Shown: positions 7,996 through 20,196, counted from the stretch's first letter. The stretch is DNA of 32,000 nt from Rhodoferax sp. (GCA_008015235.1 SSFF01000015.1:58727-90726); one strand, 5' to 3'. The notes: generated from the letters alone by a model not told the origin. Program-made: numbers and translations.

Positions 7996-8487
7996 ATGAA
8001 GAAATTTGCTTTTGTTGTTGCTGGTCTGTGCCTGACCGCATCGAGCATGGTCATGGCGGCTGGTGAGCAAGGTTCCGGTCCGAGTCCGTACACCGAGTGC
8101 GGTATCGGTGCTGCTATTTTCAAGGAAACCGACTGGGCCGCGGCAACATCGAACGTCACCTGGGACTTGGGCACCACTGCCTTGTCTTCCGCATCCTATT
8201 CTCCAGAAATGTGCTCGCCCAAGAAGGTCAAGGCGGCCATGTTGATCCGTGACAACTACCCCCAGATCGCCGAAGAAATTGCCCGTGGTCAGGGCGAACA
8301 CTTGGACGCCGCACTTGAAATGTTTGGCTGCAACGCAGCAACGCAAACTGCTGCTGCTACGCAAGTGCGCGGTGAGTTTGGTCGCGTAGTTTCCGCTCCT
8401 TCCTATGGTGCTCAGAAGCAGCTCCAGAAGGCTGGTCAGATGTACCAAGTCATCCAGTCTGCTGCGCAAGGTCGTTGCGGCGCCTAA
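7996..8487 (+). CDS. Small secreted protein, DUF3015-like (family recalled from memory)
   Basis: Signal peptide MKKFAFVVAGLCLTASSMVMAAG, then ECGIGAAIF...WDLGTTALSSA. RBS-like GGGATGAACGT lies before the ATG. Confidence 0.6.
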   Translation: MKKFAFVVAGLCLTASSMVMAAGEQGSGPSPYTECGIGAAIFKETDWAAATSNVTWDLGTTALSSASYSPEMCSPKKVKAAMLIRDNYPQIAEEIARGQGEHLDAALEMFGCNAATQTAAATQVRGEFGRVVSAPSYGAQKQLQKAGQMYQVIQSAAQGRCGA

Positions 8488-8507
8488 TGCTGTTGCGTCC
8501 ACAGCAA

Positions 8508-10436
8508 ATGGCCCCTTCGGGGGCTTTTTTTTGGCTGAAACGTTTGGGTGTGTTGCTGCCGTTGGGCTGGCAGGTGGTTGCCCACTCTGCAGCCTTGGCC
8601 TTCGACGGGTCCTCTGGCATTGCAGGTCTTTCCCGTGAAGCGACTTGGTTGCGCCTGCTGCATTACCAAGGCGGCGCACTTGGACGCGCACAGAGTGCGA
8701 TCCACAGCCCAGAATTTTTCCTGGACCCCAACGGTATGGTGGACCCCGCAGCTGAGCTGGACGCCACGGTTCATGCCTTGCGACAACCGGTGGTGCGGGG
8801 CCAAGAAGACAACCATGCGGCATGCCGTTTTCCGGCCCGTAGACAGTGGTTGGAGACCCGAAGCTCGGATTTGCAGAGTGCGCTGAAGGGCACACTCCAG
8901 GATCTGCACTGCCCGGGCTTCGCGGAATGGGGCGGCCCGCAGGGCATAGCATCGATCAGCCTCATGTTCGCCAATGGCTACCTGGGCAACCCGGCGTCCT
9001 ATTACGGCCATTTGTTTCTGAAGTTCAATGCGGAAAAGGGCACGCAGTCGTACCTCGTCGATAAGACGGAAAATTTCGGTGCGCTGGATGTAAAGGGGGA
9101 CAACCCGGTTCAATACATCGTAAAAGCGCTTATTGGAAGCTACGACGGTGGTTTCAGCCAGATAGATTTTTTCTACCATGATGCCGCCTACACGGAGCAT
9201 GAATTTCGCGATTTGTGGGAGTACCGGCTCGACTTGACTCCGTCGGAGATTCGTTTCCTTAGCGCCCACGCATGGGAAGTACACCGCAAGCGCTACACCT
9301 ATTTTTTCTTCCACGACAACTGCGCGTTCCGTGTTGCTGAACTGTTGGAGCTGCTGGACGGCGTGCAGGCCGTGCCACCGGGCGCACCATGGATCATTCC
9401 GCAAGTGGTGGTGAACGTGGTGGCTGCTCAGTCCCGGGATGGCAAGCCTCTGGTGAAAGAGCGCAGACTTCATCCGTCCAGACAGTCGCGTCTGTACCAA
9501 CGCTACAAGGCACTGAATGGCGAGCAGCAGGCACTGGTGCGCTCAATTGCGGCGCAGGAAATCGTGCTCAGTGATCCTCCCGTGAAGCGCCAGCCTGAAG
9601 CCGACCAAGCAAGAATGGTCGACACCCTGCTGGATTACTACCAGTTCACCAGTGGCACCACGGAGGCAGGTGGCGACAAGCATCTGCCCAAGGAATACTT
9701 CACGGCACTGAAAACCCGCTTTGAGCTGCCACCTGTTGCCAATGCCTCCAGACCCGTGGCGCAGGATGTGCGGGATGCGCCCGATGCAGGACACCCACCT
9801 GGGTGGGTGCAGATCGGGCTGGGCAGTCAAGAAGGCCATGGTGCAGTGCAGACCATCCGCCTCCGCCCGGCCTATTACGACGACCTGGACAGCGATGCAG
9901 CACAGCCCCCTTGGAGTGGTTTGAGTATGGGTGATCTGACCTTGGAGCGCCAAGGTGAGACGACACACATCAAACGCTTGGATTTCGTAGCCATCAACAG
10001 CAACCGCCCCTCCGTCACCGGGATGCCCGGAGATGGCGGTACCGGTTGGACCGCGCGTTTCGGTGTTGAAAAACAAAGCCTGGCCTGCACCGATTGCCAA
10101 GTGTGGCGCCTTCAAGGGGACTACCGCAAGGTCCTGCCCTTGCCAGTGCCAGACTCCATGCTGGCACTGGGCATGGGCGGTGGCGTTCAATCGAACCGGA
10201 ATGATGAGGGCATGACGTTCGTATCTGCTGTCCTGAAGGTGGCCAAGCGTTTTCAGAACGGTAGTCATCTGAATTTCAGCCAGGAAACCAAGTCACCACT
10301 CGACCGCTCTGAAGCGAGTCGCCATAGCAGTACCTTGGAATGGCGAACACCACTCACCCGGTCGCTGGACCTGCGGCTTTTGTGGGAGCATGACGGTGTG
10401 GCCAGAACCACCATTGGTTTTGGGGCTTACTGGTGA
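8508..10436 (+). CDS. DUF4105 (Lnb N-terminal periplasmic domain) family protein
   Basis: WLRLLHYQ, HSPEFFLDPNG, HAACRFPARRQWL and YYGHLFLKF match my recollection of DUF4105 proteins. Signal-like N-terminus. The start is ambiguous (ATG 8508, TTG 8544 or GTG 8550). Confidence 0.7.
   Translation: MAPSGAFFWLKRLGVLLPLGWQVVAHSAALAFDGSSGIAGLSREATWLRLLHYQGGALGRAQSAIHSPEFFLDPNGMVDPAAELDATVHALRQPVVRGQEDNHAACRFPARRQWLETRSSDLQSALKGTLQDLHCPGFAEWGGPQGIASISLMFANGYLGNPASYYGHLFLKFNAEKGTQSYLVDKTENFGALDVKGDNPVQYIVKALIGSYDGGFSQIDFFYHDAAYTEHEFRDLWEYRLDLTPSEIRFLSAHAWEVHRKRYTYFFFHDNCAFRVAELLELLDGVQAVPPGAPWIIPQVVVNVVAAQSRDGKPLVKERRLHPSRQSRLYQRYKALNGEQQALVRSIAAQEIVLSDPPVKRQPEADQARMVDTLLDYYQFTSGTTEAGGDKHLPKEYFTALKTRFELPPVANASRPVAQDVRDAPDAGHPPGWVQIGLGSQEGHGAVQTIRLRPAYYDDLDSDAAQPPWSGLSMGDLTLERQGETTHIKRLDFVAINSNRPSVTGMPGDGGTGWTARFGVEKQSLACTDCQVWRLQGDYRKVLPLPVPDSMLALGMGGGVQSNRNDEGMTFVSAVLKVAKRFQNGSHLNFSQETKSPLDRSEASRHSSTLEWRTPLTRSLDLRLLWEHDGVARTTIGFGAYW
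8510..8532 (+). terminator. Putative intrinsic terminator after the small secreted protein gene
   Basis: GCCCC-TTCG-GGGGC hairpin followed by T8. It overlaps the first possible ATG (8508) of the next gene. Confidence 0.5.
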
Positions 10437-10535: not shown

Positions 10536-10541
10536 TACAAT
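10536..10541 (+). promoter_or_regulatory. Candidate -10 box (TACAAT) of the native tRNA promoter
   Basis: TACAAT lies 13 nt upstream of tRNA position 1, followed by a GC-rich discriminator CCGCTG. No convincing -35 was seen. Confidence 0.3.
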
Positions 10542-10554
10542 CCGCTGTTCGGTC

Positions 10555-10600
10555 GGGGCGTTAGCTCAGTTGGTTAGAGCAGAGGACTCATAATCCTTTG
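10555..10600 (+). pseudogene. 5' 46 nt of the disrupted host tRNA(CAU) gene (attL side)
   Basis: GGGGCGT-TA-GCTC-AGTTGGTTA-GAGC-A-GAGGA-CTCATAA-TCCTT-TG, then it breaks into TTTTTTCCAAAAAAATTG. There is no T arm or acceptor 3' strand. Confidence 0.85.
10587..10600 (+). repeat. attL core, direct repeat CTCATAATCCTTTG
   Basis: Identical 14-mer at 20102-20115. It covers the anticodon loop plus the 3' anticodon stem. Confidence 0.8.
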
Positions 10601-10680
10601 TTTTTTCCAAAAAAATTGAGCTGATGCGTTGTAAGCGTTGCTACATATAGATAGTTTGCTATTGATAATGTAGCTTTCAT

Positions 10681-10701
10681 GCTTGCACACCGCTTGCACA
10701 C
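10681..10701 (+). repeat. Two tandem GCTTGCACAC motifs (candidate integrase arm-type sites, attL side)
   Basis: GCTTGCACAC at 10681-10690 and 10692-10701. A third copy is at 11085-11094. Degenerate copies lie near the right end. Confidence 0.45.
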
Positions 10702-10750
10702 TTTTTCCCAAAAAGTTGCAACGATTACCACAGTTAAAATTGCGAAGAGT

Positions 10751-11033
10751 GGGGCGTTAGCTCAGTTGGTTAGAGCAGAGGACTCATAAAATTTTGTGCC
10801 ATACGATTGGGAAACTGCGTATGGGATGGCGTCAAATTCGATGAAACCTAAGTGCAGCAATGCATAGGGCAATGTCGAGCCAAGCTTCAGCGCTTTTGTG
10901 CTGTTGAAGGTGTAGAGACTAGACGGCGCCCACCTAAAGCGAAAGCAATGGTGAAGGCATAGTCCAGCGAGTGGCGAAAGTCACACAAAGCAGAATCCTT
11001 TGGTCGTTGGTTCAAGTCCAACACGCCCTACCA
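10751..11033 (+). tRNA. Island-borne tRNA(CAU) interrupted by a group I intron. Exons are 10751-10787 and 10994-11033. It resembles tRNA-Ile2 (lysidine) more than elongator Met.
   Basis: The joined exons give a 77-nt cloverleaf: GGGGCGT TA GCTC AGTTGGTTA GAGC A GAGGA CTCATAA TCCTT TGGTC GTTGG TTCAAGT CCAAC ACGCCCT A CCA. G27-U43, the TGGTC variable loop and the TTCAAGT T loop resemble E. coli ileX as I remember it. Confidence 0.85.
10788..10993 (+). ncRNA. Group I intron, IC3 / Azoarcus pre-tRNA-Ile type, 206 nt, in the anticodon loop after CAU
   Basis: Blocks match my memory of the Azoarcus ribozyme: GTGCC, GGGATGGCGTCAAATTCG, GAAACCTAAG, GAGCCAAGCTTC, GAAGGTGTAGAGACTAGACGGCGCCCACCTAA and GAAGGCATAGTCCAGCGAGTGGCGAAAGTCACACAAAGCAG. 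It ends in G (omega-G 10993). P2-like stem CCATACG/CGTATGG. GTG (10796-10798) can pair with exon CAU. Confidence 0.85.
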
Positions 11034-11084
11034 CTTCTTACAGTGAACTGGCTTTTATAAAAGCGCCAGCACTAGTGTCATTTC

Positions 11085-11094
11085 GCTTGCACAC
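11085..11094 (+). repeat. Third GCTTGCACAC motif, between the island tRNA and int
   Basis: Exact 10-mer match to 10681-10690. Confidence 0.4.
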
Positions 11095-11132
11095 TCATTG
11101 TCCACTGCGACGCATGAAGTTACAGTGTGCGC

Positions 11133-12494
11133 ATGCCTCCAAAAGTTGAATCAACACACGTCTTAATGGACAAAACGCTCGTGCTTTACAGGCGCGAACG
11201 TAGTGGCATTTGGCAGTGTCGTTACAAGGTTGCAGGCGTATGGCAACGAGCTACAACAAAAGAACGCGACATTGAAAAAGCAAAGGATCAGGCCAAGCGC
11301 TTGATGATTGAAGCTGAGTTGCGTAAGCGTGAGAACTTGCCAGTCATCACACGCAGATTTAGAGATGTTGCCAAGCTAGCTGTGCAGCGTTTGGAAGACG
11401 AGCAGAAGAACGGCAAGGGCAAGGTCATCTACAAGGATTACATCCGTGTCATCAACGACGTATGCGTGCCGTTTTTAGGCAAACGCAACATTACGACGAT
11501 TGACTACGCTGTATTGGATGAGTTTGAAACATGGCGTGCAGAGCAGATGGGCAAGGCACCCACACGTAGCACGTTAATGACGCAGAACGCAGCTTTGAAC
11601 AGGGTGTTTGATGAAGCTGTGATACGTGGCTTTTTGATGCAGGCGAACAAGCCCGTGCTTAAGGCAACTGGCAAGAAAAGCGAACGACACGCAGCGTTTG
11701 ACGTGAAAGAAACAAAGGCGCTGCTTGGCAATTTTGATGAGTGGATTGAGCGAGCAAAAAACGACGAAAGTAAAGAGCTGCGAATGCTCTTGCGCGACTA
11801 TGTCCATGCGCTATTAGACACAGGTGCAAGGCCTGGCGACGAGCTGCTGAACTTGAAGTGGAAGCAGGTCAAAGTTGCAATAAAGCCCACTGTTGTGAAG
11901 GAAGGCATTGAAGGCAACGAAGACGCAGTAGATGCACACAACCTGAATTTGAGCTGTGAACTAACGGTTACAGGGAAAACAGGCACACGCACGATGCTTG
12001 GCATGGAGCGCACAGTGAGAGCGTTGCAGCGGATTGCAAAGCGCAATTACAAAGAAGTTGGCGAGCCGCTAGCGCCGTTGAAGCATGTAGCGATTGCTAC
12101 GAACAATGACTACGTGTTCCGCACCAAAGCAAAGGTCAAACCTACGAGTTTTTCAAAGCTGTTTGACACGTACTTAGAAGAGCACAACTTGCTGATTGAC
12201 CCAGCTACGGAGCGCAAGCGTGTCTTCTATAGCCTGCGGCACACATATGCAACGCAAATGCTTACCAACGACGGTGTGCCAATCCACACGCTGGCTAAGC
12301 AAATGGGAACGAGCGTTGTAATGATTGAAAAACACTACAGCCACTTAAAGGCAGTGCAAGCTATTGAGCAACTGCGCGGCGAAGAGACACGCAAGTTGCT
12401 GGAGGCAGGTGGCGTGATTGATGAAATCTATAAAGCAAAGCCAGCGAAGAAGAATGCAAACAAATTGGTTCGCAAAAGTGAGTCAAAGTGCTGA
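11133..12494 (+). CDS. int: Tyrosine-type site-specific integrase
   Basis: LLDTGARPGDEL (box I Arg), YSLRHTYATQML (HxxR) and GTSVVMIEKHYSH (catalytic Tyr). It sits next to the left att end. The start is uncertain (GTG 11127, ATG 11133 or ATG 11166). Confidence 0.9.
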   Translation: MPPKVESTHVLMDKTLVLYRRERSGIWQCRYKVAGVWQRATTKERDIEKAKDQAKRLMIEAELRKRENLPVITRRFRDVAKLAVQRLEDEQKNGKGKVIYKDYIRVINDVCVPFLGKRNITTIDYAVLDEFETWRAEQMGKAPTRSTLMTQNAALNRVFDEAVIRGFLMQANKPVLKATGKKSERHAAFDVKETKALLGNFDEWIERAKNDESKELRMLLRDYVHALLDTGARPGDELLNLKWKQVKVAIKPTVVKEGIEGNEDAVDAHNLNLSCELTVTGKTGTRTMLGMERTVRALQRIAKRNYKEVGEPLAPLKHVAIATNNDYVFRTKAKVKPTSFSKLFDTYLEEHNLLIDPATERKRVFYSLRHTYATQMLTNDGVPIHTLAKQMGTSVVMIEKHYSHLKAVQAIEQLRGEETRKLLEAGGVIDEIYKAKPAKKNANKLVRKSESKC

Positions 12495-12545
12495 ATGGAT
12501 TGGCTATAAACTATTAAGTAGATTAAATATAGAAATGAATAAATT

Positions 12546-13055
12546 ATGTCAGCAAGAAAATCATACACAAGCGTTACTGTTAAGTTGACAGATGGGGATT
12601 TGTGCGATGTTAAAAGATACGTAGATAATTTAATTCGCAGACATGAAAACAATGAAGAGCGAATTGATGAAATTATTGTTATTAATGGAATAGGCTATAA
12701 GCGTGAAGAGATTTATGGCGTAAAAATTTTGCTTGATGAAATTTTGGATAATGATGGCGATTTCATCGAAAGTGATGCGTTGAAGATTGTTGAGTATGTT
12801 GCTCCATCAGATTTCGAAAAGTTTATTGGCGAAGATTTGTACGTAAAGAAAAATGTGGCGGAGTTGAAAATCCGTTTTATTGAATTGCAGTTGATACTGG
12901 ATTTTTTAGATCAGGTTAGGCTGCTATCAGAAATTGAAGAATCTAAGTATTCGTTATGTGAGGTAAATGATTTTACCTTGCCAGATAATTTAGAGAATGG
13001 CACAGATGCTGAAAAGGAGTTGTGGGAAAGCTATAACAGAAGAAATAGAAAATGA
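12546..13055 (+). CDS. Hypothetical acidic protein, 169 aa, very AT-rich gene
   Basis: Long ORF in AT-rich DNA where stop codons are frequent by chance. I recognise no motif. Confidence 0.55.
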   Translation: MSARKSYTSVTVKLTDGDLCDVKRYVDNLIRRHENNEERIDEIIVINGIGYKREEIYGVKILLDEILDNDGDFIESDALKIVEYVAPSDFEKFIGEDLYVKKNVAELKIRFIELQLILDFLDQVRLLSEIEESKYSLCEVNDFTLPDNLENGTDAEKELWESYNRRNRK

Positions 13056-13097
13056 TATGGGCTATCATTGGTGGTCAATTATCAATATATTTCGAAC

Positions 13098-13115
13098 ATC
13101 AAAGATATCTTTGAT
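13098..13115. promoter_or_regulatory. Perfect 18-bp palindrome ATCAAAGATATCTTTGAT upstream of the H-NS gene (candidate operator)
   Basis: Perfect dyad 50 nt upstream of the GTG start at 13165. Confidence 0.35.
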
Positions 13116-13164
13116 AAGAAGTCAACTATCATGTTGGCTCCAATAACTATCGTTTGGAGTAAAC

Positions 13165-13557
13165 GTGGCACGAACAACGTTGGAAACACAACTGGCAAAG
13201 CTGCGTAAGCAGCGTGAGGCAATTGAGGCGAAAGAAAAAGCCTTACTTGCAAGAGCAAATGACAAGGTGATTGCTGAAATCGTCGCCCTTGCAAAGAAGC
13301 ACAACGTGACGATTGAAGAGCTAAGCGATGCGATGGATACTGCAAAGCGAAAGCGTTCTGCTAAAGGTACACGTCATGCAGCTAAAGCCCCCCGCAAAGC
13401 TGCTAAAACTGCTGACAAGCGCGCCAAAGTTGCTCCCAAGTACCGTAATCCTGCGAACGCTGCTGAGACGTGGACAGGGCGTGGCCGTACGCCGTTGTGG
13501 GTGCAGGCACTGAAGACTGCAGGACAGTTGGAAACTGCAGTGATTGCCACTGAATAG
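13165..13557 (+). CDS. H-NS family nucleoid-associated protein (xenogeneic-silencer type)
   Basis: Coiled-coil N-terminus, Lys/Ala-rich linker and a C-terminal YRNPANAAETWTGRGRTPLWV motif (H-NS DNA-binding TWxGRGRxPxW). GGAG lies 6 nt before the GTG. Confidence 0.85.
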   Translation: MARTTLETQLAKLRKQREAIEAKEKALLARANDKVIAEIVALAKKHNVTIEELSDAMDTAKRKRSAKGTRHAAKAPRKAAKTADKRAKVAPKYRNPANAAETWTGRGRTPLWVQALKTAGQLETAVIATE

Positions 13558-13572
13558 CTTTTTTTGCATAGC

Positions 13573-13606
13573 AAAAAAGCCCACTGTTTAACGAGTGGGC
13601 TTTTTT
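13573..13606. terminator. Bidirectional intrinsic terminator between the H-NS gene and the ATPase gene
   Basis: A6-AGCCCACT-GTTTAACG-AGTGGGCT-T6: an 8-bp stem flanked by an A-run and a T-run. Confidence 0.75.
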
Positions 13607-13609
13607 GTT

Positions 13610-13628
13610 GTGTCGTTTTAAACGACAG
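13610..13628 (+). repeat. Hairpin motif copy A: GTGTCGTTTTAAACGACAG
   Basis: 17/19 identical to copies at 15157 and 16353. It overlaps the ATPase stop codon (TTA at 13618-13620 on the plus strand). Confidence 0.65.
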
Positions 13629-14310
13629 CTTGTGAAATTGATGCTGTTCGCAATCGTTGGACTTTTATGATCACTTGCACAATTGCATTCACAACATCTC
13701 GTGCAGAACCATTGAACGGTTCAATGATTTTTACCAACGTCGCATCTTTCACGCTGTTTATCCCAGCATCTGCCAGCATCCTCCGCGTCAGTGGCAGCCA
13801 CTTGCTGGCTGGCGCAGCATTGAATGGGATGCAGTGACAGCGATTGCGCACACCCATTTCGACTTTGTCGAAATAGTTAGTAGTCATTATGAATATCGTC
13901 TGCGGGATATTCATAACTGACTTCAATGTCTGCATGGCCGCAACATTCAAGTTGTCCACTTCGTCCAAAACGAAATAATGGTGACTGGCAAGAGGAAGCA
14001 GAACGGCTTGCTGTTCTAGTTTCGCCATCAACAGCGCTCCGTTGTTGCCTGGCTGTATTCGCTCAAAACGTTCGTTGGCAACGCCATTGCTGCGCATGGC
14101 TTCCATAGCGTTTGGCAGAAGTTGTGCGAGTGCGCTTTTGCCAGTGCCAGGCACACCGTATAGCAAGATGCCATTTTTGCCAGACAACGGAAACGGATGT
14201 GCACCGCAGATGAGATCGTCAACAAGCACCCGCTTGTCATCGTCTGCAAACACTATATCTGCAATGGATTTGGGGGCGTAGTCATTGGGATTGAACATCG
14301 TGTTCGTCAT
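13618..14310 (-). CDS. AAA+ ATPase, clamp-loader (RFC small subunit / DNA pol III delta-prime) like
   Basis: Walker A LLYGVPGTGKSALA, Walker B YFVLDEVDNL, then AMQTLKSVMNIPQTIFIMTTN and GVRNRCHCIPF (SRC-like sensor). ATG at 14310 is preceded by AGGAAG. Confidence 0.8.
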   Translation of the reverse strand: MTNTMFNPNDYAPKSIADIVFADDDKRVLVDDLICGAHPFPLSGKNGILLYGVPGTGKSALAQLLPNAMEAMRSNGVANERFERIQPGNNGALLMAKLEQQAVLLPLASHHYFVLDEVDNLNVAAMQTLKSVMNIPQTIFIMTTNYFDKVEMGVRNRCHCIPFNAAPASKWLPLTRRMLADAGINSVKDATLVKIIEPFNGSARDVVNAIVQVIIKVQRLRTASISQAVV

Positions 14311-14369
14311 AGTCTTCCTTTCTTCTTTTTTGATTCGCTGAGCAGCAATCACTACTCAGCTTTGAGCAA

Positions 14370-15224
14370 TCAGGCTGCTAGTGCTTCAGCAACAGCTTGT
14401 TCTTGTGCAGTGATGGTTAAAGTCGCATCGTTTGCTGCGACCTGTTCTGCGACTTGTGTTTTTGTCTCAGGCTTTGACTTACTTTCGCTGTGGTAGCTGG
14501 CCAGTGCAGCGTTCAATGCAGTGTCGCTTTGCACGACAGCCTGAACAGCGACAGTTCCATCTGCCTGCCAAGTTCCAATCAGCACGACCTGCGCGCCAAT
14601 CTTTCCTGCGTCAAGTTGTGCGCCCAACTGCAAGCCCACAGCGACGCCCATGCTTTTTGTTGCAATGCTGGCTTTAGCCTGCGCGGCCTTCTGCGTGGAA
14701 GATAGCGCGGTGCTGTTGGGTTTTTTGCCCAAGCGAATTGCCTCCACCCCGCCAGCATTGGTGATAAACGTCGCAATTTGATCTGCTGCAACTCCATCTT
14801 GCAGTGCTTTCTGCAGCACCACGCTATAGGCGCTGACACGGCGACGATCTGTGCCGTCATTGCTGGTGCTGTCGCTGAACACGCACTTGACGATCTTGCT
14901 GATCGTGTGGGTTGATTTGAGGAACTTATAGCCCTTTTTGTTGACGTAGTTGTTTAGCGCATCACGCAGCTTCTTTGCTTCATCCCCATCTACCCCCATA
15001 TCCTTGTATAGCTGGTAGCACTTTTGCAGCAAGGCGTACAACATTTCATTGCTCGTACGGTAGACAGTGGTTTCCCACGCCTGACGATCAATTGCCAGTT
15101 GCTCAATGCGTTCAAACGTGTACGTGGGCGCAATAGTGCTGGTGGCATTCGCTGCAGTGTCGTTTTGCACGACAGGCGCAGTGTTAGTGGAAGAAGAGGA
15201 CACGAGAGCGGTAGCGTTTTGCAT
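14370..15224 (-). CDS. Hypothetical protein, 284 aa, upstream partner of the AAA+ ATPase
   Basis: ATG at 15224 is preceded by AAGGAG. The Ser/Thr/Ala-rich termini carry the repeated peptide VVQ(N/S)DTA. I recognise no family. Confidence 0.65.
   Translation of the reverse strand: MQNATALVSSSSTNTAPVVQNDTAANATSTIAPTYTFERIEQLAIDRQAWETTVYRTSNEMLYALLQKCYQLYKDMGVDGDEAKKLRDALNNYVNKKGYKFLKSTHTISKIVKCVFSDSTSNDGTDRRRVSAYSVVLQKALQDGVAADQIATFITNAGGVEAIRLGKKPNSTALSSTQKAAQAKASIATKSMGVAVGLQLGAQLDAGKIGAQVVLIGTWQADGTVAVQAVVQSDTALNAALASYHSESKSKPETKTQVAEQVAANDATLTITAQEQAVAEALAA
14521..14539 (+). repeat. Hairpin motif copy B: GTGTCGCTTTGCACGACAG
   Basis: Inside the 284-aa gene, encoding AVVQSDT on the minus strand. 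Confidence 0.7.
15157..15175 (+). repeat. Hairpin motif copy C: GTGTCGTTTTGCACGACAG
   Basis: Inside the 284-aa gene, encoding PVVQNDT on the minus strand. Confidence 0.7.
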
Positions 15225-15371
15225 TTGGAACTCCTTAGTAATGCAAGTTAATAAAGACAGCGTCAATGTGTTTGCTGCCATCGCCGCATCAGTTTGTTGC
15301 TGCGATGTATGTAATGTATTTTTCATATCAACAATGTGCGATAGTTGAAATAGACGGTTATATTTACAGCT

Positions 15372-16352
15372 ATGAATAGAGCGCAACGTCATTTCTTCAA
15401 AGGACTTCCAAGCTTCGTTGCGCCCAACGACGACATGGAGATAGCTGAAGCGAGGGAGAGCATCTATTACTGGTGGTGGGCCTTTGCGCGGCTCAGTCCA
15501 GTGCTCTGGTATGCAAACCAGACAGGCTTGAAACCCATTGATCCAGCTATCGCAAAAGTGACAGAAGCGCTTGGCGATTTGTGGCGTTACCCAGCCTTTG
15601 GCGTGTGGTGGAAAACACGCGGCAGCAAGGTGTTTGCTGAATCAAAGCGACCAGCAAAGGTGCAGCAACTGGATCTTTCACTACTGCACGAACATCCCTT
15701 TGACAAAGACAAGATGTACGTGGAAGTGCCGCTGAATATTCGCCAGCAGACCATCGTTAGCCAATTCAAAAAGCTATTGGCGCAGGAGCATGAAGGGCGA
15801 GCATTAAATCTTGCAGCTCACAGCACCGCGCACTTGGCACTGCATACAAAGCGCTACAGGCTCAGCACCATTGAAAAGGAGTACTGGGTACTGCTTTACC
15901 GTCTGCTGTACCCAAATATTGAGATTTGGCGTATTGGTGACCGTCTGCAAGTAGCACCACACCTCAAAGTGCGTGACACAGCAGGTGCAGAGGCACTAAA
16001 GCGCAAGCATGCGCTCAATGCTGTCACTGGCCGCTACTACTACAAGGCCAGATTCACGTTGCTTAACTTGGAGCGCGACAGCTTTCCCAACTTCAGCGAA
16101 ATTCACGTCAGTAGTAGGAAGCAGCCATTTGGTAGTGAACACCAAAAAGCATTTCGCGCGGCGACGGAAGATGGAATTGATGGCAAAACCTCTGCATGGG
16201 CACAGTGGTTGAAGGACACTTATTTGGAAGAACTGCACAGAGAGGTCAAGCGCCGTGTCCCGCACTTGGAATACAACATGCGCAGGCCAGAGAGCAATGC
16301 GCGGCACCGCATTCCTGCCTTTGTGGCTGGTACCAGTGACTTGCTGGAGTAA
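15372..16352 (+). CDS. Hypothetical Trp-rich protein, 326 aa
   Basis: Long ORF divergent from the 284-aa gene. N-terminus contains IYYWWWAFARLSPVLWY. I recognise no family. Confidence 0.6.
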   Translation: MNRAQRHFFKGLPSFVAPNDDMEIAEARESIYYWWWAFARLSPVLWYANQTGLKPIDPAIAKVTEALGDLWRYPAFGVWWKTRGSKVFAESKRPAKVQQLDLSLLHEHPFDKDKMYVEVPLNIRQQTIVSQFKKLLAQEHEGRALNLAAHSTAHLALHTKRYRLSTIEKEYWVLLYRLLYPNIEIWRIGDRLQVAPHLKVRDTAGAEALKRKHALNAVTGRYYYKARFTLLNLERDSFPNFSEIHVSSRKQPFGSEHQKAFRAATEDGIDGKTSAWAQWLKDTYLEELHREVKRRVPHLEYNMRRPESNARHRIPAFVAGTSDLLE

Positions 16353-16373
16353 GTGTCGTTTTGCACGACACTT
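16351..16373 (+). repeat. Hairpin motif copy D, extended to a 9-5-9 dyad: AAGTGTCGT-TTTGC-ACGACACTT
   Basis: Starts within the stop codon of the 326-aa gene and ends 7 nt before the recombinase stop. It is intergenic between convergent genes. Confidence 0.7.
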
Positions 16374-16379
16374 GAGTTG

Positions 16380-16946
16380 CTAGACCAATTCCACTGCGTT
16401 GCGCTTCATGTCGTCATTCACATCAATGTATTTCTGTGTCACTGCGATGCTGCGATGACCAGCGAGACTTGCCAGCACACGTACGCCTACGCCTTTGCTT
16501 GCAAGGTTCGTAATAAACGACCTGCGGCCACTGTGGCTACTTGCGCCATCAATGCCTGCCTTGCGATACAGCCAAAAGAAGTGCTGCGTAAGTACGTTTG
16601 CAGTGAATGCCTTTCTACCTGCTGTAACAAACAAAGGTTGTTCTAAGTTGGTCACGCCACGTGCGAACATGTAGCGTTGTAGTTCTGTGCGCAGTTTTTC
16701 GCCAATAAACACAGTGCGAGGATGACGGCCTTTGGTTTGCTCCGCTGCCAAGCGAACTTCGTGTTTGACAGTTCCATCTGCATTCATTACGTCGCCCACT
16801 TTCAAACTTGCAATCTCCCCAACGCGCATGCCTGACCAAAAGCTCGTCAGCAGCATCACGCGATTGCGCAGTGCAAAGCTTCGCGTTGCTATATATGCAA
16901 GTACCTTGTCAATTTCTACTTGTGTAAGTGTTTTTGCTTGTGCCAT
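16380..16946 (-). CDS. Single-domain tyrosine recombinase, 188 aa (FimB/FimE-sized, catalytic domain only)
   Basis: SGMRVGEI (Arg), SSHSGRRSF (HxxR) and AGHRSIAVTQKY (His...Tyr). AAGGAG lies before the ATG. There is no N-terminal arm-binding or SAM-like domain. Confidence 0.85.
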   Translation of the reverse strand: MAQAKTLTQVEIDKVLAYIATRSFALRNRVMLLTSFWSGMRVGEIASLKVGDVMNADGTVKHEVRLAAEQTKGRHPRTVFIGEKLRTELQRYMFARGVTNLEQPLFVTAGRKAFTANVLTQHFFWLYRKAGIDGASSHSGRRSFITNLASKGVGVRVLASLAGHRSIAVTQKYIDVNDDMKRNAVELV

Positions 16947-17306
16947 TTTGTTGCTCCTTTGTGCTTAATAAATACGTGTGTTATTAATGTATTTTCTTAA
17001 GCAGGCATGGGCAACCAAATAATGCAAAGGTCGCTTAATTCATTTCTTATATAGACACCAAAGGAAATAGCAATAAGCTTTGGTGTTTGAGTATTTTTGT
17101 TTCCAGCCCTTTGCAGCACTTCTTCCTGTTCCTGCTGTCTATGCGTGCGCTGTCCCGTTTGCGTTGCTTGTAGCTTGTTTTGTGCGTTCGCTGCGCTGTT
17201 TTCAAACTGTAAGTGCTGGCAGTAATTTTTAGGCAAAGCGAAGCTAATTAAAGCTTCATGCAGCTTTAAGAGTTTCAGCAAGAGGCAAACGTGGCCAGTA
17301 ATGCTG

Positions 17307-17822
17307 TCAAGCCACGTTCCACAGTACATTGTCAGTACTGTGTGCGTTCAGCTCTTTCGTCATGTATTCCATCCAGCCGCTGTCCATTACCTGTACATCG
17401 TGCTGTTCATCCATCCCATCAACCAACGCAATCGCGTTCTTCACCATCTCTTTAAACAGCATGGGCTTTTGTTCAAAGCCGCCTACTGCAAGGTGCAAGT
17501 GCAGACGTTTACCGTTACCAACACCTTCAACCGTTGCAAAGTAGCGCAGGCCTTTGCCGTCTCGCTTTGCTGCATGGCCGTAAGCCTGTTTGTTTAGCTT
17601 CTGTGTAAAGCGTTTGGCAATGCCTTCGCAGTCTTCGCGCTTTAGCTTGCGCATGTAGACGCCATTGTTGTTTTTGACTTTGTACGACTGCTTAAGCGTC
17701 AGCGTGACTGCGAATTGAAACTCCTGCATGTGACCATTTAGCCAGGTGCGTAATGCGTCTTTGCAAGCAGTACGTGCGTTGGCGTTGTAAGCAGTGATCT
17801 CCCGTATGCGCTGTAAGTCCAT
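17307..17822 (-). CDS. Small HUH-motif protein, candidate rolling-circle Rep / Inovirus Gp2 (YfjJ/YagK)-like
   Basis: FAVTLTL (Rep motif I-like), RLHLHLAVGG (His-hydrophobic-His) and WMEYMTKE (Tyr motif), in the canonical order. Start is either ATG 17822 or TTG 17843. Confidence 0.4.
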   Translation of the reverse strand: MDLQRIREITAYNANARTACKDALRTWLNGHMQEFQFAVTLTLKQSYKVKNNNGVYMRKLKREDCEGIAKRFTQKLNKQAYGHAAKRDGKGLRYFATVEGVGNGKRLHLHLAVGGFEQKPMLFKEMVKNAIALVDGMDEQHDVQVMDSGWMEYMTKELNAHSTDNVLWNVA

Positions 17823-17894
17823 GCATATATTTATTCCTGCCAAATAAAACCAAATATTTTTCTTGCCGTTATTTGGTTAGGTCATAAATACAGT

Positions 17895-18110
17895 ATGAGA
17901 TTTTTTGAATTTGCCCCTAAAACACCAACGCTACCCAAGCCAAAAACGCCAGATCAGCAGCGAGTTGCAGTCTTGCAAGGAAACAAGGATCGTGCTGCAG
18001 AAGCTTTGAAGAAGGAGCGGCAACGGCAGCAAGTGAGCAATGCGCAGAAGACGATTGCGAGGGTCAATGCGTCGCAGCCTATGCAAATGCCCAAACCTGC
18101 TACCAATTGA
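17895..18110 (+). CDS. Hypothetical small basic Pro/Lys/Gln-rich protein, 71 aa
   Basis: ORF divergent from the Rep-like gene, followed by a 9-bp stem hairpin GATGTGTTA-CTTTAT-TAACACATC (18109-18132). Confidence 0.4.
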   Translation: MRFFEFAPKTPTLPKPKTPDQQRVAVLQGNKDRAAEALKKERQRQQVSNAQKTIARVNASQPMQMPKPATN

Positions 18111-18290
18111 TGTGTTACTTTATTAACACATCTAAGTCTGCCAAAGCTTTTAGTGCTGTTTGTATGGCCGCATTTGGTTTTGCATGAATTGGATGCGGTA
18201 CCCAGTCATGCTGTACGGGTACAGGTTGCGAAAGAACGAAGGCTGAAAATACATTTGTCTGTGCTTTAACAAATATTGAAAGGAAAGCAC

Positions 18291-18731
18291 ATGGCAACAG
18301 CACTCGCGTCCCTCAAGTTCACAACTGCAAAGAAGTCCAGTCAACTGTCTCCTGTGCAGTCGCGCCGCAACAAGATCATTGCCAAATTGGAAGAGCAGAT
18401 TGCGTTGGCAACTGCGCAGGCAGAAGGGCGTGTGTATGCGCCAGCAAAATTTAAGACGGTGACAGATGCAAACGGCGAACGGCGCAGCGTTGAAACGGCG
18501 AAGCGCGTTAAACAGTGGTGGTTCGCAACAGTAGACGGCAAACTGGCGCTGACGGTGCGTTATGGCGCAAAGGTGCTTGAGTTGGCAAAGGGAAAGAACG
18601 CTGTGGACGTAGGCACTGCCGCGCAATTAGTGCCAGTGCTGACGCTGTTAAAGCAAGCAGCTGAAGCTGGCGAACTGGATGCTGCTATTGAGGCTGCTGG
18701 TGCGGCTTTGCGGAAAGGATTTGCAAAGTAA
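18291..18731 (+). CDS. Hypothetical protein, 146 aa
   Basis: ATG at 18291 is preceded by AAAGGAAAG. Composition is typical of the moderately AT-rich part of the island. Confidence 0.6.
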   Translation: MATALASLKFTTAKKSSQLSPVQSRRNKIIAKLEEQIALATAQAEGRVYAPAKFKTVTDANGERRSVETAKRVKQWWFATVDGKLALTVRYGAKVLELAKGKNAVDVGTAAQLVPVLTLLKQAAEAGELDAAIEAAGAALRKGFAK

Positions 18732-18864
18732 CTGGTATAGTATTTTGACGGATTTGATTTTAGAACTTCTGGCCGCTAAGTGTGGTTTTTTTCCTGCGTC
18801 GTTGGTGTAAGAGGTTTTTTGGACTATTTTTATTGACATTTACTAGATTGTTAGAGGGGGGTCT

Positions 18865-19884
18865 ATGCACTTTTGTTTGAAATTTATTATTTTGTCGCTA
18901 GTTTCATTTTCAGTAAACGCGCAACTTAATGGAGATGCTCGACGTAATTGGATGGGCCAGTATTTTGGAGCCTGCTATAAATCCCAAGTGGCAGATGCGT
19001 CAAATGTCGATGTGCCGCCAGTTATGATTGCTCAATATTGCAGTTGCGCTAGCGAGCAAACAGCGCAGGCATTGACTGATGGTTTGTTGGCAGAAATAGA
19101 TGCTGGGACAAAAAATCTTCCACAAAATATAAACACTGATGCGGCTAAGTTTTGCCTTACAAGTTTTAAAAAATATCCATCGAGTCCATTTGCTGAGAGG
19201 GTGATTAGTAGTGAGTCTGCAAAGAACATTAAGCTCTTTGATGGCACTACACAGCGATTTACGGCATATCGCCAGTTTGTATATGATAAAAATTGGAAGC
19301 TATTGCAAGACAAGGAACTGCCAAATGGCAAATATCTTTTTGATGTTAATTTTGCCCCAAATAGATCTCAAAATTTGGCCAGAGATGTAACCAGTGGTGT
19401 GGTTTATAGTCTTTTTGTTTCAGAGCAGGCGACAGAAGAATCGCGTAAAAAGGGTTTTGATTTTCTATTTTTTGTACCAGAAATTTCTGGTAATCTTGCA
19501 ATTAACTCAGTCAAAAATATTTTCGTTTCACAGTATTTTGATGTGCGAGATGGTAAATTTTATGAAACGCACTATGTTCGTTCTCAGGCGCTCATTTGTT
19601 CCGCATTAAACGAAGCGAAAATTCGTGCTCAAAAATCTATGGCCGCATCGATTTTTAAAGAGCTTCTTCTTGTTGCTATTAAAAGCTATGCTGGAGCAAG
19701 TTATAGCGGTGGAACTTTTACTGGAACAGCAAACGGCGGGACCTTTGTTGGTTCATTTCGTAAATATGACAGTACATGGCTTGGGGAGCACTATTCGCGG
19801 GGGTTGGATGCTGTATTTAACGGTACTGCTAGTTTGGGGGAGATAACTGATGAGCAGAATCGTTTGAAGTGTTCTGAAATTTAA
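18865..19884 (+). CDS. Hypothetical secreted protein, 339 aa, very AT-rich gene
   Basis: RBS AGAGGGGGG, signal peptide MHFCLKFIILSLVSFSVNAQ. I recognise no family. Confidence 0.6.
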   Translation: MHFCLKFIILSLVSFSVNAQLNGDARRNWMGQYFGACYKSQVADASNVDVPPVMIAQYCSCASEQTAQALTDGLLAEIDAGTKNLPQNINTDAAKFCLTSFKKYPSSPFAERVISSESAKNIKLFDGTTQRFTAYRQFVYDKNWKLLQDKELPNGKYLFDVNFAPNRSQNLARDVTSGVVYSLFVSEQATEESRKKGFDFLFFVPEISGNLAINSVKNIFVSQYFDVRDGKFYETHYVRSQALICSALNEAKIRAQKSMAASIFKELLLVAIKSYAGASYSGGTFTGTANGGTFVGSFRKYDSTWLGEHYSRGLDAVFNGTASLGEITDEQNRLKCSEI

Positions 19885-20023
19885 TTCGCTTGAATTTAAT
19901 TTTTTGGAACCCTTTTGTGCGCACTTGATCGATGAGAGGGGGTGTGCAAATACTGCGAATAATTGATGTGTTGCGCATTGCCATTGGCGTGCAAGTCTTA
20001 TAAAAGCAGTAGTTATTTCAGAT

Positions 20024-20045
20024 GCTTACACACTTTGCTGCACAC
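20024..20045 (+). repeat. Degenerate arm-type motifs GCTTACACAC and GCTGCACAC (attR side)
   Basis: Each has 1 mismatch to the GCTTGCACAC consensus. An inverted GTGTGCAA lies at 19942-19949 and GCGTGCAAG at 19987-19995. Confidence 0.4.
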
Positions 20046-20101
20046 TGAAAAAAACCACGCTGTAAACCGCATAAACACTAGGTTTTGTGAAATAAATTTT
20101 T

Positions 20102-20115
20102 CTCATAATCCTTTG
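20102..20115 (+). repeat. attR core, direct repeat CTCATAATCCTTTG
   Basis: Identical to 10587-10600. Confidence 0.8.
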
Positions 20116-20146
20116 GTCGCGGGTTCAAGTCCCTCACGCCCTACCA
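20102..20146 (+). pseudogene. 3' part of the disrupted host tRNA(CAU): anticodon loop to CCA
   Basis: CTCATAA-TCCTT-TGGTC-GCGGG-TTCAAGT-CCCTC-ACGCCCT-A-CCA, preceded by island AT-rich DNA. 10555-10600 plus 20116-20146 equals 77 nt. Confidence 0.85.
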
Positions 20147-20164
20147 TTCCAATGCATGCTTCAA

Positions 20165-20196
20165 GGCCTGTCACTTTCCGGTGACGGGCCTTTTTG
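20165..20196 (+). terminator. Intrinsic terminator of the original tRNA gene
   Basis: GGCCTGTCAC-TTTCC-GGTGACGGGCC followed by TTTTTGTTTT. Confidence 0.7.

Follow-up and report, generated by a model that had tools for sequence, protein, structure and literature searches.

A 32,000-nt stretch of Rhodoferax sp. DNA (hereafter the window, to which coordinates refer unless a comparison locus or contig, given as an L-number, is named) harbors a 9.5-kb island (10601-20101) that divides a tRNA(CAU) gene of its host in the anticodon loop, restores it at neither junction, and carries, 150 bp inside the left junction and just upstream of the integrase gene, a complete tRNA(CAU) gene of its own (10751-11033; the spare), which is split by a group I intron. 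Taken as a whole, these data are best, and in our judgment quite probably, explained by an island that splits the host gene, a spare that replaces it, and an intron that shields the spare. The anatomy of the locus, the empty site in a relative, the geometry of the attachment site of the free element (attP), the recurrence in other genomes, and the covariation within the intron directly support this explanation.

At the left attachment site (attL), positions 1-46 of the host tRNA lie on the plus strand at 10555-10600 and end in a 14-bp core, CTCATAATCCTTTG (10587-10600, plus strand), which comprises the anticodon loop, the 3' strand of the anticodon stem, and 2 nt more. At the right attachment site (attR, 20102-20146, plus strand), the second core copy (20102-20115) leads into the host tRNA 3' part through CCA, and the host tRNA terminator hairpin follows (20163-20192, plus strand). 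The core CTCATAATCCTTTG occurs in two exact copies in the window, against a chance expectation of 0.08 matches with 2 mismatches allowed. An earlier reading of this DNA, made from the sequence alone (the sequence-only reading), had described a tRNA 5' part that breaks into non-tRNA DNA, a matching 3' part followed by a terminator, and a core shared by both junctions, and this description was confirmed in each respect: attL continues at 10600 into TTTTTTCC, attR is directly preceded by AAATTTTT, and neither is tRNA sequence. It was also right that the target gene is rebuilt at neither junction, such rebuilding being a feature by which tRNA-targeting islands are otherwise recognized. In default mode, ARAGORN called no tRNA anywhere in the window; after in-silico excision it called tRNA-Met(cat), 77 nt long and with a single C.U mismatch in its T stem; this call corresponds to the cloverleaf proposed for 10555-10600 joined to 20116-20146. 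Precise excision would restore the host gene. Moreover, the GC content is 0.46 for 10601-20101 and 0.58-0.61 in the flanks, and a Logan contig (L001) shows the same attR junction as the window.

A metagenome scan with the AsmA protein encoded downstream of the tRNA recovered an empty site, L081, whose AsmA is 78% identical. There the tRNA gene is contiguous and intronless, as had been predicted for an island-free relative, and it is identical at 77/77 positions to 10555-10600 plus 20116-20146, including the odd T-stem mismatch of the host tRNA; the gene order is hrcA, a promoter with the TACAAT box as in the window, the tRNA, and a terminator hairpin similar to that of the window. Intronless tRNA(CAU) genes upstream of asmA were further identified in L083, L086, L088-L092, and L102. 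Since L081 and these other relatives carry an intact intronless tRNA, the outer fragments in the window represent a host gene that was originally intronless. Its putative -10 box, TACAAT (10536-10541, plus strand), was read from the sequence and was not called by a strict consensus promoter scan; the GGTACAAT/CTACAAT element is found at equal distance upstream of the tRNA in L081, L085, and L021. Regarding the identity of the tRNA, ARAGORN reads CAU as Met, and the best BLAST match against E. coli was tRNA-Lys (81.8%). The host tRNA(CAU) is probably tRNA-Ile2, judging from the intron class and the E. coli ileX sequence.

The sequence-only reading overlooked that the host tRNA 5' half is repeated exactly over 39 nt at 10751-10789 and that the tRNA 3' part is matched at 10991-11033. 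Once introns were allowed, ARAGORN called the spare, all on the plus strand, with a 37-nt 5' exon ending in CTCAT (10751-10787), a group I intron of 206 nt (10788-10993; Rfam and ARAGORN) located right after the anticodon CAU, which is Williams' Ile2.5Ug position, and a 40-nt 3' exon ending in CCA (10994-11033). With intron boundaries of the form ctcat-intron-aatcc, the joined exons form a 77-nt cloverleaf in ARAGORN's intron mode and read …GGACUCAU/AAUCCUUUGG across the exon junction, with a GTTGG T stem. Compared with the host gene, the spliced spare has only four substitutions, all of them in the T stem and paired, the stem of the spare being perfect (GTTGG/CCAAC) and that of the host having one mismatch (GCGGG/CCCTC). 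The spliced RNA of the spare would be a normal tRNA; the intron is predicted to splice and the spare to be expressed. The earlier claim that the insertion inactivates its target holds for the gene copy that was cut and fails for the function, which is replaced rather than lost, provided that the intron splices, because a complete spare is carried at 10751-11033. Another intact copy had also been named in the sequence-only reading as a possible sign that the two outer fragments do not derive from one gene; such a copy exists in the spare, and the outer fragments still come from one host gene.

This arrangement is not restricted to the window. A genome scan with an integrase alignment yielded 76 loci, mainly of freshwater Burkholderiales, and a locus was considered split-type when the 5' half of a tRNA, with CTCATAA(TC) at its end, ran into non-tRNA DNA and a complete tRNA(CAU) lay on the same strand within 700 bp. 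Thirty loci, the window included, are of this type; 24 of them have a spare divided by an intron, and the other 6 have an intronless spare whose anticodon stem is different. L019 (9570-9876 and 18632) is a 31st split-type locus, in which the spare has no interruption and matches both host halves exactly; the target there has the anticodon stem GGAGA/TCTCT, not GAGGA/TCCTT. Where the target is GAGGA/TCCTT, that stem is retained in 0/6 intronless spares. Across the 31 loci, which belong to many genera, the common layout is a split 5' half, a spacer of 150-350 bp, a complete spare, and the integrase gene. Five islands (the window, L005, L006, L026, and L040) can be seen from end to end, and in each of them the split 5' half together with the 3' half at attR makes up a single tRNA; the core common to both junctions is shorter in related islands, where it is reduced to CTCATAATC(C) or CTCATAA. 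The acceptor stem of the spare is the same as that of the host in the window and differs from it in L005, L006, L026, and L040; overall, the acceptor 5' strands of spare and host differ in 15/31 loci, and a hybrid tRNA built at the junction would consequently be mismatched in these 15 hosts. Furthermore, a second, unrelated intron type of approximately 245-250 nt lies between U33 and C34 (GGACT/taa...ggtaag/CATAATCC) in L043 (6969-7295), L052 (9446-9772), L063 (7839-8160), and L069 (9547-9871), that of L052 scoring 24.4 bits with E 6.5e-4 in Rfam. Both intron positions fall inside CTCATAA, as CTCAT/AA and CT/CATAA.

In the intron of the window, P1 pairs CAU to GUG with a U.G wobble, and the intron ends in ...GCAG, the last base being G. 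An alignment of 16 island introns showed compensatory changes in 28 of the 52 predicted pairs, and the P1 pairs, including U.G, were invariant in 16/16; on both counts, the intron is under structural selection. Intron identity and integrase identity are correlated (Spearman 0.66, a value reached by 0/2000 permutations). The closest intron to that of the window, 85% identical, belongs to a Sterolibacterium metagenome-assembled genome (MAG), although the integrase there reaches only 61% identity, and this discrepancy points to an exchange of modules. With the Azoarcus-type intron (Ile2.5Ug, subgroup IC3), the window intron shares the site CUCAU/.../AA, the P1 pairing CAU/GUG with its U.G, the terminal G, a size of approximately 200 nt, and the absence of an open reading frame (ORF). 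By eye, its core sequence is also very similar to that of the Azoarcus ribozyme. Ile2.5Ug is one of four classical bacterial tRNA intron types (Williams; bioRxiv 10.1101/2020.01.27.920355), and bacterial tRNA introns are rare, with 5292 in 80,413 genomes, mostly cyanobacterial (Williams, 2020; bioRxiv 10.1101/2020.01.27.920355). The idea that the island merely inactivates the tRNA gene, the cell losing the tRNA or using another chromosomal copy, would agree with the lack of a regenerated tRNA at either junction and with the empty default ARAGORN result, but it is hardly credible for a locus with a complete tRNA(CAU), well folded when spliced, 150 bp inside the island, with a spare conserved in 30 other islands, with an intron that has undergone compensatory changes, and with differences between spare and host gene that are confined to paired T-stem positions.

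The arm-type sites indicate which of the two tRNA copies takes part in recombination. The arm motif is the 10-nt GCTT[G/A]CACAC, present in the window in three exact copies (10681, 10692, and 11085) and one copy with one mismatch (20024). The P' arm (10601-10750, plus strand; GC 0.37) consists of an AT-rich filler of 80 nt, two exact arm-type motifs GCTTGCACAC (10681-10690 and 10692-10701, plus strand), and a lead-in to the spare; a third GCTTGCACAC (11085-11094, plus strand) lies 81 bp before the integrase start, and the P-arm motifs GCTTACACAC and GCTGCACAC (20024-20045, plus strand) are located 78 bp left of the core. This attR distance of 78 bp is found in 5/5 complete islands (the window, L005, L006, L026, and L040). 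On the left, most of the split-type loci that were examined have the motif 116-127 nt downstream of the point where the split half begins; the value is 92 nt in L005, and no left arm motif was found within range in L025. The distance from motif to core is about equal to that in classical, tRNA-rebuilding relatives. A motif at -81 to -92 from the integrase gene is also present in L022, L016, L030, L005, L007, and L014. In a Polynucleobacter subfamily, attL reads 5'half-CTCATAA-GAAAGAAGCCC and attR reads ...GGTTTTCTTTGG..CTGCT-CTCATAA-TCCTTTGG, and an attP-type junction, ...CTGCT-CTCATAA-GAAAGAAGCCC, was identified in L038 and L070, which confines the crossover to CTCATAA. L007 likewise has an attP-type junction, where a P arm homologous to the right end of the window is followed by filler, motifs, the spare tRNA, and the integrase gene. 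From the motif spacing and the three junction types, it follows that the split copy is attL, that the crossover takes place in the 7-nt anticodon loop, and that the spare lies outside the attachment sites.

The roles of the two copies could be exchanged, with 10751-11033 as the host's own intron-containing tRNA, rebuilt in the classical manner by an island beginning within the 3' exon, and 10555-10750 as an older leftover. Indeed, the spare, the motif at 11085, and the integrase gene have the layout of a classical attL, and with the closest integrase relatives, which are classical (L163 at 88% identity, L165 at 76%, and L032 at 73%), a tRNA 3' half directly precedes the motifs and the integrase gene. 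We nevertheless consider this very improbable, for the gene in L081 is intronless and identical to the joined outer fragments, T-stem mismatch included; the spacer (10601-10750) and the intron share the AT-rich composition of the island; it is the outer split copy, and not the spare, that stands at the conserved distance from the arm motifs and is paired with the sole attR; the intron is 85% identical to that of the Sterolibacterium MAG despite 61% integrase identity; and there are attP-type junctions in which the core is flanked by non-tRNA DNA on either side. The close integrase relatives L014, L072, L163, and L165 are classical, and the trailer that follows the window spare shares homology with the P' arm of L165; on these grounds, the block of spare, motif (11085), and integrase gene has the appearance of what was once a classical attL, later extended by a new core-filler-motif module.

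It could also be argued that two elements lie in tandem, a tiny remnant at 10601-10750 and a separate island from the spare to 20101, as arrays and remnants do occur in the family (two split copies in L073; isolated pieces in L037, L048, and L075). This is improbable in view of the order of split half, filler, motifs, spare, and integrase gene, which recurs with matching spacing in 31 loci of many genera, of the module, which L007, L038, and L070 have undivided after an attP-type junction, and of the single attR in the window. Regarding these variants, L073 (4868-5620) has two tandem units of split 5' half, CTCATAA, and filler, 231-233 bp apart, before an intron-containing spare, which is consistent with unequal crossing-over between 5'-half repeats. 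Isolated pieces made of an intron 3' part and exon 2 were observed in L037 (8485-8575), L075 (7694-7770), and L048 (14948-15130 and 17268-17390), between the spare and the integrase gene or downstream of the latter, and are probably remnants of decayed tandem islands.

In the explanation that we favor, the island has recombined with the intronless host tRNA(CAU) in the anticodon loop through an attP with the layout P-arm motif, 68 bp, core, about 85 bp of non-tRNA filler, and P'-arm motifs. Because such an attP is devoid of a tRNA 3' half, integration leaves two dead tRNA halves. A whole spare would spare the island any hybrid tRNA made of a host half and an island half, and in carrying the entire gene it presumably avoids the mismatched hybrids described above; since the full spare avoids a hybrid tRNA, entry into hosts with different acceptor stems becomes possible. 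The intron, in turn, splits the 7-bp crossover region (CTCAT/AA), so that the DNA of the spare would not be an attachment site of the host type (attB). It would thereby prevent recombination between attP and the spare in the excised circle and would keep other islands from inserting into the spare, and we infer from its position that it protects the spare from the integrase. As for expression, the spare is co-oriented with the host tRNA promoter, and no terminator was found between the two; for these reasons, we propose that transcription from that promoter may extend into the spare.

Several observations weigh against this explanation, or against parts of it. The intron matches RF00028 over the full model length with 48.4 bits and E 4.7e-10, which is just below the gathering score of 50. 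A strict promoter scan found no consensus sigma-70 promoter for the spare, and in L085 the intron-containing tRNA is in the opposite orientation, which means that read-through is not universal. Furthermore, L019 retains an uninterrupted, host-identical spare, and an attB-like spare can therefore persist, at least when integrated. The altered anticodon stems of the intronless spares, a candidate for strong evidence of protection, were accordingly downgraded to weak evidence, and they may come from foreign origin only. The excess of introns could reflect common descent of a few island lineages and not repeated selection, and a second host tRNA(CAU) copy may lie beyond the window, the part of the host genome covered here.

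An alternative that retains the spare for compatibility only and regards the intron as a neutral or selfish passenger, with no shielding role, draws on the same uninterrupted spare of L019, on the 6 islands with intronless spares, and on the co-divergence of intron and integrase, which is as expected from plain co-inheritance. We deem it unlikely, though deserving of serious attention, considering that 24/31 spares bear an intron when bacterial tRNA introns are rare overall, that two different introns occupy two positions which both lie within the 7-nt crossover region, and that the GAGGA/TCCTT stem was kept in 0/6 intronless spares at such a target.

Compared with known systems, the element is a tRNA-targeting tyrosine-integrase island that lacks the defining junction regeneration, with an intron that fits Ile2.5Ug. 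Like classical tRNA islands (Islander/TIGER; PMC4383910), it has a tyrosine integrase beside the attachment site, a tRNA core repeat, a foreign composition, an anticodon-loop crossover, and arm-type sites that flank the core. In classical islands, however, attP brings the tRNA 3' segment and attL is rebuilt, whereas the window island brings filler, leaves dead junctions, and carries a separate spare. The Azoarcus-type intron resides in a resident host gene, while the intron-containing gene of the window is island cargo beside the gene just split. Phages and islands with accessory tRNAs are likewise mobile elements with a complete tRNA gene, but those tRNAs usually supplement codon usage, and the window spare is the same isoacceptor as the target and replaces the destroyed copy. 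A closer parallel comes from archaea, where Sugahara et al. (2012; PMC3293823) reported a recombinase-bearing insert that is preceded by a 5' tRNA fragment and followed by an intron-containing tRNA, and where the Randau-Soll hypothesis, as it is cited in that paper, holds that introns protect tRNA genes from integration. The archaeal model and our reading of the window island share the idea that an intron at the attachment site would block further recombination, which may benefit the element, and the interruption of the att core by an intron that this model entails is found in our islands as CTCAT/AA or CT/CATAA. They differ in that the archaeal introns have a bulge-helix-bulge and are cut by a protein endonuclease, whereas the bacterial island has a group I ribozyme, predicted to be self-splicing, and in that the archaeal intron is proposed to lie inside attP and so to make the junction intron-containing, whereas the window island has a separate complete spare. 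Within the library searched, we retrieved no bacterial account of islands that carry an intron-split spare of their own target, nor any paper linking the Azoarcus-type intron to cargo of this kind.

Islands in tRNA genes are thought to be viable because they rebuild the gene that they cut; the family described here cuts without rebuilding and brings a whole replacement. Compatibility between the tRNA halves of island and host is then no longer required, and the host range may widen. A self-splicing intron also gains a plausible role at the DNA level, namely the concealment of a recombination site, and the patchy and long unexplained occurrence of group I introns in bacterial tRNAs, including the much-studied Azoarcus type, is tied to a concrete mobile carrier. 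Moreover, the notion of introns as protection is opened to direct testing, for which one integrase and two DNA substrates suffice. From the standpoint of annotation, island finders that rely on a regenerated tRNA together with a displaced fragment and tRNA finders that are blind to introns would mis-annotate such loci as a broken essential tRNA.

More tentatively, and with odds that we place somewhat short of even, the island family may be a vehicle that spreads the Azoarcus-type and second-type group I introns among betaproteobacterial tRNA(CAU) genes, the intron being retained for its effect of depriving the spare of the integrase's crossover site. If true, this would be the first bacterial, ribozyme-based case of introns that protect tRNA genes from integration, it would explain the patchy tRNA introns in Proteobacteria, and recombination between the 37-39-nt repeats of split half and 5' exon would establish a tRNA with an intron at its native position, for which L058 seems to be an example. 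In L058 (7600-8341), hrcA, a promoter-like stretch, an intron-containing tRNA(CAU), and the integrase gene follow one another, and a split 5' half is missing; the gene with the intron seems to have become fixed there at its native locus, possibly through recombination between 5'-half repeats.

Three further host relatives, L084 (129-190), L087 (8175-8240), and L085 (1206-5147), with AsmA proteins 76-77% identical, have other islands at the tRNA; in two of them attR reads CTTA/CTCATAATCC..., and L085 contains a degenerate 3.9-kb insert with the intron-containing tRNA on the opposite strand. In the window, a DUF3015 gene and a gene with an Lnb_N domain (7996-10436) lie between hrcA and the tRNA promoter, unlike L081, L085, L021, and L058, where hrcA is directly upstream of the tRNA. 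Neither an empty site nor attP could be read from the Logan contigs of the source samples, as these contigs end inside the tRNA repeats. They stop within the tRNA halves at window positions 10584/10591 and 20117, which are not core boundaries (L161 and L162 end at 10584, and L002-L004 start at 20117), and breaks at such fixed non-core points imply other tRNA-like variants in the same samples. L163, a contig with an 88%-identical integrase, opens with the T-arm sequence of the host gene of the window.

The tyrosine integrase (11166-12494, plus strand; PF00589, PHROG 1) has 442 aa as called, its ORF is open from 11127, and 2928 homologues were found at E<1e-10. The viral contig scan with the integrase alignment gave no match, the integrase matches among plasmids all showed <33% identity, and PHROGs contributed little, for which reasons the element is not assignable to a known phage or plasmid. 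Other members of the integrase family adjoin tRNA-Lys genes (CTT or TTT) in place of tRNA(CAU), as seen in L010, L013, L027, L028, L044, L050, L051, L054, L056, L059, L060, L074, and L079.

The island cargo (12546-19884), which includes unknown ORFs, has genes on both strands. On the plus strand, it encodes an H-NS-like protein (13165-13557) and a DUF6641 protein (18276-18731); on the minus strand, a clamp-loader-like AAA ATPase (13618-14352), a second small tyrosine recombinase of 188 aa (16380-16946), and a Rep ORF2/G2P-like protein (17307-17843). The second recombinase and the Rep-like protein suggest that the excised element may replicate or resolve multimers. A match to the Rfam Thr_leader family (13570-13653; 39.4 bits, below threshold) was rejected as a leader and attributed to a bidirectional terminator hairpin (13567-13612), which sits between the convergent H-NS-like and ATPase genes. 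Finally, a 31-nt repeat occurs four times in the cargo (13598-13628, 14509-14539, 15145-15175, and 16341-16371) with the palindrome TGTCG(T/C)TTTGCACGACA, and these repeats may be operator or iteron sites.

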